From the NCBI RefSeq assembly GCF_003790525.1, contig NZ_CP033635.1: a stretch of DNA of 64,000 bases; one strand, 5' to 3'. The position numbers and the translations under genes are program-made. The notes under the pieces were generated by a model. It saw only the letters and a program-made list of their open reading frames with translations. It had not been told where the DNA came from and made no database searches. This DNA is from Escherichia coli (GTDB lineage: Bacteria > Pseudomonadota > Gammaproteobacteria > Enterobacterales > Enterobacteriaceae). Numbering within the stretch: the stretch's first letter is position 1; the number at the start of each line of letters is the position of its first letter. Positions 12,228 through 63,409 of this stretch are shown piece after piece.

Positions 12228-12276
12228 ATTTTATCCTTATAATAGTTGCCAGCCTTGCAGTGAGGCTGGCAAAAAA

Positions 12277-55016: not shown

Positions 55017-56453
55017 ATGTCAAACAACATTCGTATCGAAGAAGATCTGTTGGGTACCAGGGAAGTTCCAGCTGATGCCTACTATGGTGTTCACACTCTG
55101 AGAGCGATTGAAAACTTCTATATCAGCAACAACAAAATCAGTGATATTCCTGAATTTGTTCGCGGTATGGTAATGGTTAAAAAAGCCGCAGCTATGGCAA
55201 ACAAAGAGCTGCAAACCATTCCTAAAAGTGTAGCGAATGCCATCATTGCCGCATGTGATGAAGTCCTGAACAACGGAAAATGCATGGATCAGTTCCCGGT
55301 AGACGTCTACCAGGGCGGCGCAGGTACTTCCGTAAACATGAACACCAACGAAGTGCTGGCCAATATCGGTCTGGAACTGATGGGTCACCAGAAAGGTGAA
55401 TATCAGTACCTGAACCCGAACGACCATGTTAACAAATGTCAGTCCACTAACGACGCCTACCCGACCGGTTTCCGTATCGCAGTTTACTCTTCCCTGATTA
55501 AGCTGGTAGATGCGATTAACCAACTGCGTGAAGGCTTTGAACGTAAAGCTGTCGAATTCCAGGACATCCTGAAAATGGGTCGTACACAGCTGCAGGACGC
55601 AGTACCGATGACCCTCGGCCAGGAATTCCGCGCTTTCAGCATCCTGCTGAAAGAAGAAGTTAAAAACATCCAACGTACCGCTGAACTGCTGCTGGAAGTT
55701 AACCTTGGCGCAACAGCAATCGGTACTGGTCTGAACACGCCGAAAGAGTACTCTCCGCTGGCAGTGAAAAAACTGGCTGAAGTCACTGGCTTCCCATGCG
55801 TACCGGCTGAAGACCTGATCGAAGCGACCTCTGACTGCGGCGCTTATGTTATGGTTCACGGCGCGCTGAAACGCCTGGCTGTGAAGATGTCCAAAATCTG
55901 TAACGACCTGCGCTTGCTCTCTTCTGGCCCACGTGCCGGCCTGAACGAGATCAACCTGCCGGAACTGCAGGCGGGCTCTTCCATCATGCCAGCTAAAGTA
56001 AACCCGGTTGTTCCGGAAGTGGTTAACCAGGTATGCTTCAAAGTCATCGGTAACGACACCACTGTTACCATGGCAGCAGAAGCAGGTCAGCTGCAGTTGA
56101 ACGTTATGGAGCCGGTCATTGGCCAGGCCATGTTTGAATCCGTTCACATTCTGACCAACGCTTGCTACAACCTGCTGGAAAAATGCATTAACGGCATCAC
56201 TGCTAACAAAGAAGTGTGCGAAGGTTACGTTTACAACTCTATCGGTATCGTTACTTACCTGAACCCGTTCATCGGTCACCACAACGGTGACATCGTGGGT
56301 AAAATCTGTGCCGAAACCGGTAAGAGTGTACGTGAAGTCGTTCTGGAACGCGGTCTGTTGACTGAAGCGGAACTTGACGATATTTTCTCCGTACAGAATC
56401 TGATGCACCCGGCTTACAAAGCAAAACGCTATACTGATGAAAGCGAACAGTAA
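55017..56453 (+). CDS. aspA: aspartate ammonia-lyase AspA
   Basis: ORF 54972..56453 trimmed to [30 protein letters not shown] (478 aa); [10 protein letters not shown] signature. Confidence 0.97.
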
Positions 56454-56467
56454 TCGTACAGGGTAGT

Positions 56468-56496
56468 ACAAATAAAGAAGGCACGTCAGATGACGT
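56468..56496 (+). terminator. aspA intrinsic terminator
   Basis: ggcacgtc-agat-gacgtgcc hairpin followed by tttttt. Confidence 0.85.
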
Positions 56497-56570
56497 GCCT
56501 TTTTTCTTGTGAGCAGTAACTTAAAAATAACAATCTAATATCAACTTGTTAAAAAACAAGGAAGGCTAAT

Positions 56571-60717: not shown

Positions 60718-60793
60718 GCCCGGATAGCTCAGTCGGTAGAGCAGGGGATTGAAAATCCCCGTGTCCTTGGTTCGATTCCGAGTCCGGGCACCA
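60718..60793 (+). tRNA. pheU: tRNA-Phe (anticodon GAA)
   Basis: GCCCGGATAGCTCAGTCGGTAGAGCAGGGGATTGAAAATCCCCGTGTCCTTGGTTCGATTCCGAGTCCGGGCACCA; pheU rather than pheV because of the yjdC/dsbD context. Confidence 0.96.
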
Positions 60794-60969: not shown

Positions 60970-62154
60970 ATGGCACTTACAGCCAGACAGGTCGAAACAG
61001 CCAGACCTAAAGAAAAAGACTATAAACTCTCTGACGAACGTGGTTTATATCTGCTGGTAAAAACCACGGGTGCCCGCTACTGGCGGCTTAAATACCGGAT
61101 AGCAGGAAAAGAGAAAAAACTGGCCCTCGGCGTCTATCCCGACGTCTCCCTTGCTGAAGCCAGAATCAAACGCGACGATGCCCGAAAAATTATCTCCGAA
61201 GGTGGCGACCCGGGCGAAAAGAAGCGAAAGGAAAAACTCACTCAGAAAATCTCTGCCACCAATACGTTCCATGCCCTTGCTACGGAATGGCATCAGCATA
61301 AATCTTTGTCATGGTCTGAAAGTTACGCCAGAAGCGTACTGGAGGCTCTGGATAAAGATATTTTCCCGTATCTGGGCAAACGAAGCGTTACTGATATCCT
61401 CCCGCTGGAAATGCTGGAAATTCTGCGCCGCATAGAAAAACGTGGCTCGCTGGAAAAACTTCGTAAGGTGCGTCAATACTGTAATCAGATTTTTCGTTAT
61501 GCCATCGCCACCGGACGAGCCACTGTCAATCCGGCATCTGAACTGACCAGTACGCTGGCGGCGCCAAAAGCTGCACATTTCCCCCACCTGAGAGCAGATG
61601 AGCTCCCTGTTTTTCTCCGGAAGCTCGCTGAATATCATGGCAGTCCTGTTACCCGCATGGCGACAAATCTGCTGCTTCTGACAGGCCTCAGAACGATTGA
61701 ACTACGGTCCGCTGAATGGTCAGAAATTGATTTTGATAATGCCCTGTGGACAATCCCTGAAAGCCGCATGAAAATGCGACGTAAACATGTCGTACCACTG
61801 TCACGACAGGCCACTGACATTCTGCTGCAGCTCAAAACTTTCTCCGGACAATACCGGCTGGTTTTCCCGGGACGTTGTGATATCAACAAGCCAATGAGCG
61901 AAGCCAGCATCAATATGGTGCTCAAACGTATCGGTTACGATGGCAGGGCAACCGGTCATGGTTTTCGTCACACCATGAGTACCATTCTGCACGAACAGGG
62001 CTTTAATTCTGCCTGGATTGAAATGCAGTTAGCTCATGTGGATAAAAATTCCATCAGGGGTACCTATAATCATGCCCTGTATCTCGATGGTCGCCGTGAA
62101 ATGATGCAATGGTACGCTGACTACATTGATTCACTTTCCATCCAGGAGAGTTAA
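60970..62154 (+). CDS. P4-type tyrosine integrase (phage/genomic-island integrase)
   Basis: ORF 60940..62154 trimmed to MALTARQVETARPKEKDYKLSDERGLYLLVKTTGARYWRLKYR; C-terminal catalytic region HGFRHT...LAHV...Y; directly 3' of a tRNA gene. Confidence 0.9.
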   Translation: MALTARQVETARPKEKDYKLSDERGLYLLVKTTGARYWRLKYRIAGKEKKLALGVYPDVSLAEARIKRDDARKIISEGGDPGEKKRKEKLTQKISATNTFHALATEWHQHKSLSWSESYARSVLEALDKDIFPYLGKRSVTDILPLEMLEILRRIEKRGSLEKLRKVRQYCNQIFRYAIATGRATVNPASELTSTLAAPKAAHFPHLRADELPVFLRKLAEYHGSPVTRMATNLLLLTGLRTIELRSAEWSEIDFDNALWTIPESRMKMRRKHVVPLSRQATDILLQLKTFSGQYRLVFPGRCDINKPMSEASINMVLKRIGYDGRATGHGFRHTMSTILHEQGFNSAWIEMQLAHVDKNSIRGTYNHALYLDGRREMMQWYADYIDSLSIQES

Positions 62155-62196
62155 TTACACTTTGTCCTGAAATTATTCTCACAATCAATAACCTTT

Positions 62197-62221
62197 CCCT
62201 CTGATCTGTAAGATCAGAGGG
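62197..62221. promoter_or_regulatory. perfect 10-bp inverted repeat (ccctctgatc-tgtaa-gatcagaggg) between integrase and regulator
   Basis: Read directly; no adjacent U-tract, so either a protein-binding palindrome or a non-canonical terminator. Confidence 0.5.
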
Positions 62222-62303
62222 ATTCCGTTAACTTACAATAAGTGATATTGGTTGTCTGGAGATTTAGGGGGACGGTCTACTATAATAATTAGCAGGAGAT
62301 AAT

Positions 62304-63314
62304 ATGTCACTTAAGGCGATTGCCACTGCACTCGGAGTTTCTGTCACCACTGTCAGTCGGGCTCTTGGAGGCTATGCAGATGTGTCAGCTTCCACCCGTG
62401 CACGGGTGGAAGCTGAAGCTCGTCGACGCGGTTACCGTCCTAATACTCAGGCAAGAAGACTCAAAACCGGTAAAACCGATGCTGTCGGTCTGGTTTATCC
62501 TGGACGTGATGTGCCATTTAACAGTGGTGTTTTTATGGATATGGTCAGTTGCATCAGCCGGGAACTTGCTCACCATGATATTGACTTACTACTGATAGCT
62601 GATGATGAGCATGCCGATTGCCACAGCTATATGCGGCTTGTTGAAAGTCGCAGGGTTGATGCTCTCATCATTGCACACACTCTGGATGACGATCCCCGTA
62701 TCACACACCTTCATAAAGCAGGTATTCCATTTCTGGCTCTTGGTCGGGTACCATCTGGTCTGCCCTGTGCGTGGTTTGACTTTGATAATCATGCCGGGAC
62801 TGGACAGGCAACCCAGAAACTGATTGCTTTGGGACATAAACGTATTGCATTGTTGAGTGAAGACACTTCACATAGCTATGTTGTTGCAAGACGTCAGGGA
62901 TGGCTTGATGCACTGAATGAGCATGAACTGGAAGATACATGGCTGCGGCTGGTTTCTCCCACACGGCGAGCAGGATATCAGGCCGTGATGGAGTTAATGT
63001 CACTACCGATACCACCAACAGCTATTATTACTGACAATGACCTGAGTGGAGATGGTGCTGCCATGGCACTGCAGTTGAGCGGTCGTCTTTCAGGAAAAGA
63101 TGCGGTATCTCTGGTTGTATATGATGGTTTGCCACAGGACAGTATTATTGAGCTGGATGTGGCTGCAGTTATTCAGTCAACACGAAGCCTCGTTGGTCGC
63201 CAGATTTCCGAGATGATATATCAGATAATTACTGATTCATCATCAAAACCACTACAGGTTGTCTGGAACCCGGTATTTTATCCGGGAAAGACGATTCATC
63301 CTCCTTGCTCCTGA
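62304..63314 (+). CDS. LacI-family transcriptional repressor (RafR-like)
   Basis: 336-aa ORF MSLKAIATALGVSVTTVSRALGGYADVSASTRARVEAEARRRGYRPNTQARRL, N-terminal HTH plus periplasmic-binding-protein-like fold. Confidence 0.85.
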   Translation: MSLKAIATALGVSVTTVSRALGGYADVSASTRARVEAEARRRGYRPNTQARRLKTGKTDAVGLVYPGRDVPFNSGVFMDMVSCISRELAHHDIDLLLIADDEHADCHSYMRLVESRRVDALIIAHTLDDDPRITHLHKAGIPFLALGRVPSGLPCAWFDFDNHAGTGQATQKLIALGHKRIALLSEDTSHSYVVARRQGWLDALNEHELEDTWLRLVSPTRRAGYQAVMELMSLPIPPTAIITDNDLSGDGAAMALQLSGRLSGKDAVSLVVYDGLPQDSIIELDVAAVIQSTRSLVGRQISEMIYQIITDSSSKPLQVVWNPVFYPGKTIHPPCS

Positions 63315-63337
63315 TTTTTTTATCCAGCTCACATATC

Positions 63338-63372
63338 CGAAACGTTTTGGTTGATACCCGAAACGTTTCGGA
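63338..63372 (+). promoter_or_regulatory. twin palindromic operators flanking a TTGATA -35-like hexamer
   Basis: ccgaaacgttttgg (63338..63351) and perfect palindrome ccgaaacgtttcgg (63359..63372), centres 21 bp apart, with ttgata between them. Confidence 0.75.
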
Positions 63373-63409
63373 TCAACAGTAAGGCATCCCTGAGAAAGGA
63401 GAATGTCTT

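Follow-up and report, generated by a model that had tools for sequence, protein, structure and literature searches.

The palindrome between the integrase and rafR genes of an Escherichia coli raffinose island is probably the stem-loop of a degenerate integrase terminator

We analysed a 64,000-nt stretch of an Escherichia coli genome (contig NZ_CP033635.1; hereafter the window) in which an integrative island lies beside a tRNA gene. The genes of this region run in the order cutA, dsbD, dicD (yjdC), tRNA-Phe and a P4-type tyrosine integrase (int), followed by genes for a LacI-family protein, an alpha-galactosidase, an MFS permease, a GH32 hydrolase and a porin, which correspond to rafR-rafA-rafB-rafD-rafY of the pRSD2 raffinose operon (Table 1). 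The initial annotation had located a palindrome between an integrase and a repressor gene. The integrase is of the P4 type and sits by tRNA-Phe; since the genes downstream are those of a raffinose operon, the repressor is a sugar repressor, RafR, and not a phage or island immunity repressor. The palindrome lies on the int coding strand, 41 nt past the int stop codon and 81 nt ahead of rafR.

Table 1. Features of the int-rafR region, in window coordinates.
Feature	Position	Strand	Remarks
tRNA-Phe, pheU copy	60718..60793	+	Downstream of dicD/yjdC; integration site of the island
P4-type tyrosine integrase (int)	60970..62154	+	394 aa, identical to WP_001218742.1; Pfam Arm-DNA-bind_3, Phage_int_M, Phage_integrase
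Last five int codons, stop codon (62152-62154) and 3' untranslated leader to the hairpin	62139..62195	+	Diverged homologue of related int flanks
Perfect palindrome, probable stem-loop derived from the int 3' terminator	62196..62222	+	Sequence, uniqueness, energy, folds, kept pairing
Residual tail, TTCCGTTA	62223..62230	+	Aligns with the start of the U-tract of relatives, TTTTGTTT; last 8 nt before the IS2-derived sequence
Solo IS2 left end	62231..62279	-	49 bp, IS2 positions 1 to ~49; tip at 62279, facing rafR
Candidate hybrid rafR promoter	62257..62286	+	-35 TGGAGA in the IS2 end, 18-nt spacer, perfect -10 TATAAT (62281..62286); 10/12 matches
rafR	62304..63314	+	LacI-family repressor of the raffinose operon

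The raf island is found with an identical integrase protein at pheV (loci L007, L008, L015, L016 and L018) and at pheU (the window, L001 and L017), and the CP121189.1 genome (L020/L021) carries copies at both. At one locus (L024, 1-3000), parA-like and dnaB-like genes stand upstream of the integrase in place of dicD or yqgA, which suggests a tandem insertion beside another integrative element. The raf locus is also present on plasmids, 148 of which carry this version in PLSDB. In plasmid loci L002, L009 and L010 a full IS2 truncates the same int gene, of which the last 759 bp remain, and the palindrome and solo IS2 end are likewise present; it seems that the plasmid raf region was either captured from a tRNA-Phe island or is of common origin with one. 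In plasmid LC744468.1 (H72) the int-rafR interval matches in two pieces over 1353 bp, compared to 601 bp, implying that some 750 bp have been inserted within it or close by.

The sequence at 62197..62221 is exactly the perfect repeat first described, CCCTCTGATC-TGTAA-GATCAGAGGG. This 10-bp repeat grows by one pair outward and one inward, so that its true extent is a 27-nt perfect dyad, TCCCTCTGATCT-GTA-AGATCAGAGGGA, with 12-bp arms and a 3-nt centre; the first description was real and slightly understated. Two GATC sites (62203-62206 and 62212-62215) lie within the palindrome, 9 bp apart. The hairpin has a predicted free energy of -19.3 kcal/mol as RNA and -11.7 kcal/mol as DNA, and is present in both the MFE and the centroid folds predicted for either strand.

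Within the window, the palindrome is the sole match to itself at up to three mismatches, and none of 100 shuffles matched. Just four loci harbour a perfect inverted repeat whose length is 10 bp or more and whose spacer does not exceed 8; the real window gives 11 hits (counted per arm/spacer combination) against a mean of 0.43 in mononucleotide shuffles. One of the others (62385-62416) is a perfect 32-bp palindrome without spacer, TCAGCTTCCACCCGTG/CACGGGTGGAAGCTGA, that exceeds ours in length; it lies within the rafR coding region and spans the codons for SASTRARVEAEA of the RafR DNA-binding domain. The remaining two are found at 12246-12272 and 56478-56501, the latter being a canonical terminator (a stem followed by TTTTCTTG) just past a 493-aa ORF (aspA) that ends at 56453. 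Of the three other perfect inverted repeats of this size in the window, one or more is thus a plain terminator. Rfam 15 gave no relevant match at a permissive threshold, only a spurious microRNA (21 bits against a gathering score of 80; E 0.63). A search of 100,044 species genomes for the exact stems with any 5-nt centre returned four unrelated taxa only (Microbacterium, Companilactobacillus, a Lachnospiraceae MAG and a Planctomycetota MAG), which we treated as chance matches. We also rejected a dispersed palindromic repeat of the REP/BIME or MITE kind: the palindrome is single copy in the window and never exceeds two copies per genome, with two only where a genome carries two islands.

Comparison with other integrase genes gave the most informative evidence on the origin of the palindrome. 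Integrases of the P4-type family are conserved up to YADYIDSL, with variable tails beyond. The E. coli integrase of locus L034 has a tail (SEQVS) resembling that of the window integrase (SIQES), and its 3' flank aligns with the window flank. Used as a query, the L034 flank led to further flanks of one family, located downstream of P4-type int genes at selC and tRNA-Phe (pheV and pheU islands); a gene for a TPR protein follows about 430 bp further on. The 92 bp at 62139..62230 align with the flanks of L034-L042, nine E. coli loci of several sequence types, at about 55-66% identity. At the position of the palindrome these relatives carry TCCTCCGGCCTCCAGGTCCGGAGGA and then AATTTTGTTTTTATGCTTTATTTTT, a hairpin directly trailed by TTTTGTTTTTAT, i.e. 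an intrinsic terminator; in L035 this hairpin was flagged as terminator-like by our scan, with 0.0 expected from shuffles. The window palindrome aligns without gaps to these terminators of hairpin plus U-tract.

We ran a covariation analysis on the ungapped alignment (A4), in which the window stem occupies columns 11-22 and 26-37. Three stem pairs (UA/CG, CG/UA and GC/AU) differ in both members yet remain complementary, all of them on the single branch that separates the raf-lineage flank from the rest. A C/T mismatch of the relatives corresponds to a U-A pair in the window stem, and two relatives show single-sided G-U changes. Paired cells amount to 88%, against 22-70% when the partner column is slid, and the covariation score of 0.255 (0.160 in shuffles) was reached by one of 500 shuffles. 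RNAalifold predicts the same helix from the alignment. Both GATC sites are absent from the homologous flanks and are specific to the raf lineage. As far as the aligned flanks go, it is the structure of the palindrome that is conserved, and not its sequence. Among raf-lineage copies this region hardly varies, too little to give a test of constraint any power.

Hairpins are also found behind more distant integrases: each carries an unrelated strong hairpin about 5-35 nt past its stop codon, in a second E. coli lineage (89% identity), in Lelliottia (81%), in Salmonella (71%) and at selC of O157 (62%), that of Lelliottia being a canonical terminator. A 3' hairpin is therefore a regular feature of this gene family. 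Homology of the window integrase to other int genes breaks sharply at 62138/62139. For instance, the L037 integrase is 99.2% identical to that of the window, but identity falls to about 66% from the last five codons on; an L037-type flank also stands behind selC integrases with 62% identity to the window's. A near-identical integrase with a divergent flank marks the break at 62138 as a recombination junction between the int body and a more divergent terminator module.

The initial annotation had noted the lack of a flanking U-tract, and rightly so: the residual tail has four T in 8 nt and the site is absent from the list produced by our terminator scan, which demands at least five T in the 8 nt directly 3' of the stem. 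Among the features of intrinsic terminators, the site presents a stable G+C-containing stem-loop on the coding strand shortly past a stop codon, and orthology to canonical terminators in related loci; what it lacks is the U-rich tract 3' of the stem. We also computed a score modelled on that reportedly introduced by d'Aubenton-Carafa et al. in 1990: the window site obtains -10, the lowest value, with comparators between about 0 and +21. With its U-tract missing and the lowest score, efficient intrinsic termination is unlikely at this site, and its present-day function may be nil. Two kinds of change removed the U-tract: two T-to-C changes, and a deletion by which the tail was fused to IS2 position 49.

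From these data we consider it probable that the palindrome descends, as a stem-loop, from the intrinsic (Rho-independent) terminator of the int family and is now deprived of a proper U-tract. The initial annotation had listed a non-canonical terminator among its options; the relationship to a terminator stands, as the hairpin aligns with the stem-loop of canonical int terminators, while the U-tract that makes those canonical has been lost here. This degenerate int terminator hairpin is at best, we infer, a weak terminator or a 3'-end stabiliser. According to this model, a 12-bp hairpin would fold in the int RNA past the stop codon. Where related islands carry this hairpin, with a long U-tract behind it, int transcripts should terminate there; in the raf lineage the stem would have turned perfect and longer while the tail degraded, the IS2-tied part of this decay leaving behind the 49 bp of IS2. 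The present hairpin would act at most as a weak terminator, a pause site or a protector of the int mRNA 3' end, and part of the transcripts would be expected to run on into the IS2 scar and rafR. In the DNA itself, perfect arms would permit template switching, by which the centre could flip while the arms stay identical.

We sought the palindrome in homologous islands, a comparison that the initial annotation had proposed, with absence from otherwise identical islands as a refutation of its reading. Searching 62100..62400 against 5,426 complete E. coli genomes returned 455 records spanning the whole interval, along with many integrase-only matches that stop at 62138 and more than 1000 short matches to 62231..62288. 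All 456 E. coli records with the flank contain the palindrome, which thus passed this comparison. A 9-bp stem in plasmid locus L009 was taken as a sequencing error because the same assembly shows other homopolymer frameshifts. The 98 bp at 62139..62236 are confined to the 456 records that also bear this int tail. An E. coli pheV island (L027, 4185-7185) carries an identical integrase, the palindrome with a TAC centre and the IS2 end, while its cargo past the IS2 tip is unrelated to raf and comprises a transposase fragment of the IS3 family, a DeoR regulator and PTS genes of the sorbose type. It is therefore int and the IS2 scar, and not raf, that the palindrome accompanies.

The centre of the palindrome exists in two orientations, GTA as in the window (149 of the 456 records) and its exact reverse complement, TAC (307). 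Among 17 chromosomal copies compared over 3.3 kb there are about 26 variable sites, of which the flip is one; so few differences point to a recent spread of the island. The flip is common to the two main integrase haplotypes and to the pheU and pheV sites, and of the eight possible combinations (int haplotype, insertion site, centre orientation) seven were seen. Such a pattern calls for two or more flips, or for a single flip combined with one recombination event between int and the hairpin. No site downstream of the hairpin is informative, and recurrent flipping is therefore a candidate beside the second scenario. An exact inversion of the spacer with intact arms is a known product of template switching (PMC8604942), and both spacer inversion and concerted correction of the arms by template switching between them are documented (PMC5941160). 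The GTA and TAC centres fit a spacer inversion of this kind, for which we infer both mechanism and rate. Because template switching can copy changes from one arm to the other, the seemingly compensatory changes of the stem need not reflect selection on RNA structure.

An alternative is that the palindrome is a neutral legacy: a terminator descendant that is now functionless and is kept by the youth of the island and by template switching. The loss of the U-tract, the scarcity of differences among chromosomal copies, the repeat dynamics evidenced at the DNA level by the centre flip and the precedent for concerted arm correction all argue for such a relic. Against it, the stem has become stronger in the raf lineage than in its relatives (a perfect 12 bp, compared to 8 pairs and a mismatch; -19.3 against -14 to -17 kcal/mol). 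Besides, it is established for stems of this kind (12 bp, GC-containing) that, once transcribed, they block 3' exonucleases and can make RNA polymerase pause, as this hairpin may still do. We regard a complete lack of function as possible but unlikely. Less likely again, and to be seen as speculative, is that the hairpin is an actively flipping element, with high-frequency inversion of the centre and arms rebuilt after the loss of the U-tract, or else a leaky terminator coupling int transcription to rafR dosage. If it were actively flipping, it would be a natural and trackable reporter of inverted-repeat dynamics in wild E. coli.

A further part of the interval derives from IS2. The IS2 end starts 8 bases past the palindrome stem, and the IS2 body is missing, as is its own promoter. 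Over 1000 IS2 copies match 62231-62288 of the window, these short matches sitting just outside the start of the IS2 transposase gene. The left repeat of IS2 is 42 bp long, positions 39-48 bind OrfA, and the promoter P(IRL), with an extended -10, is found at positions 48-56 (PMC3299598). P(IRL) lies beyond the retained 49 bp, and the own promoter of IS2 has therefore not been kept; for the same reason, we rejected antisense transcription from the solo IS2 end into the hairpin. Hybrid promoters at the ends of IS3-family elements have been reviewed (PMC12095673), and here the IS2 end plausibly supplies the -35 box of a hybrid rafR promoter (Table 1). Plasmid copies (L002, 8132-8190) have 8 extra bases, CCAGTCTA, at the IS2 tip, giving an exact IS2 end; in chromosomal copies, which lack CCAGTCTA, TGGAGA is placed at 18-nt spacing from TATAAT. 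The plasmid and chromosomal versions may express rafR differently.

The initial annotation had also contemplated a binding site for a dimeric protein. An operator of this sort, including a Dam/SeqA-sensitive site, would account for the perfect dyad symmetry, for the two GATC sites 9 bp apart and for an intergenic location 35 bp upstream of the candidate promoter. Yet the homologous flanks keep the pairing and not the sequence, with several arm positions differing and neither GATC present. The palindrome bears no likeness to the RafR operators, CCGAAACGTTT(C/T)GG, none of which is found within 3 mismatches in the interval; there are no extra half-sites near int, attL or rafR, and no other regulator gene is adjacent. 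We deem this option very improbable. Autoregulation of RafR through the palindrome was rejected too: the CCGAAACGTTTCGG-type dyad, with a central CG, is absent from 62155-62303 at up to 3 mismatches and has good matches only at 63337 and 63358. The region between rafR and rafA (63335-63373) contains two AACGTT-centred dyads of the LacI type, ATCCGAAACGTTTTGG and CCGAAACGTTTCGGAT, which are the expected RafR operators; these drew spurious microRNA hits from Rfam on both strands.

Two further readings have next to no probability. The palindrome could be an internal leader hairpin of a truncated IS2-like element on the minus strand, between its left repeat and the start of its transposase gene: it is 8 bp into a genuine left end of IS2, an element with a small dyad about equally far from its own tip, and a TTG-initiated 44-aa ORF is found just beyond the palindrome on the minus strand. 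IS2 similarity, however, stops at about position 49, and the remaining segment (98 nt, with the palindrome) aligns to IS2 no better than 148 of 500 shuffles do; the segment is clearly homologous to IS2-free integrase 3' flanks, and searches of 5,426 E. coli genomes, 72,556 plasmids and 100,044 species genomes yielded no complete element bearing 62139-62230. A recombination-related site, the remaining option of the initial annotation, is equally hard to credit, whether as a core or arm site of the integrase or as an inversion site accounting for the flipped centre. The palindrome does adjoin a tyrosine recombinase gene, its centre exists in both orientations, and a 9+7+9 reading of the dyad presumably recalls the geometry of core sites. 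But the island integrates at the 3' end of tRNA-Phe (60793), 1.4 kb away, at pheU and pheV alike, and the palindrome is single copy, with no partner and no further copy of the half-site AGATCAGAGGGA near int or attL at up to 2 mismatches. Moreover, inverting a 3-nt spacer between 12-bp arms needs no recombinase, being the known outcome of template switching (PMC8604942, PMC5941160).

Returning to the terminator-derived hairpin, its main value is for annotation. In the widespread raffinose island of E. coli (456 complete records, in chromosomes and plasmids) the int-rafR interval can be read as three parts: the probable remnant of an integrase terminator, a 49-bp IS2 scar and a probable IS-derived rafR promoter. 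The locus also offers clean natural examples of compensatory or concerted evolution of a terminator stem, and of an exact inversion of a hairpin centre that segregates in a population. Neither process, stem co-evolution or centre inversion, is new, and no open question becomes newly testable.

The palindrome can be set against several known systems. RafR operators O1 and O2 are dyad-symmetric as well and belong to the same island, but they are AACGTT-centred and of the LacI type, and the palindrome shares no sequence with them. As in solo IS2 ends and hybrid promoters of the IS3 family, the adjoining 49 bp are the left inverted repeat of IS2, to which plasmid copies are identical over about 43 bp; the palindrome itself is not IS2 sequence, and here P(IRL) was not kept. 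With template-switch inversions it has in common that the sole change in the repeat, across hundreds of near-identical copies, is a reverse-complemented centre between perfect arms; it differs in that its four-gamete pattern fits repeated independent flips as well as one flip and one recombination event. Compared to the int terminators of selC, pheV and pheU islands, the window U-tract is cut off by IS2 after 8 nt and the site falls short of the usual definition of a terminator, whereas position, strand, homologous flank, orthologous stem and a tail starting TT..GTT are shared.
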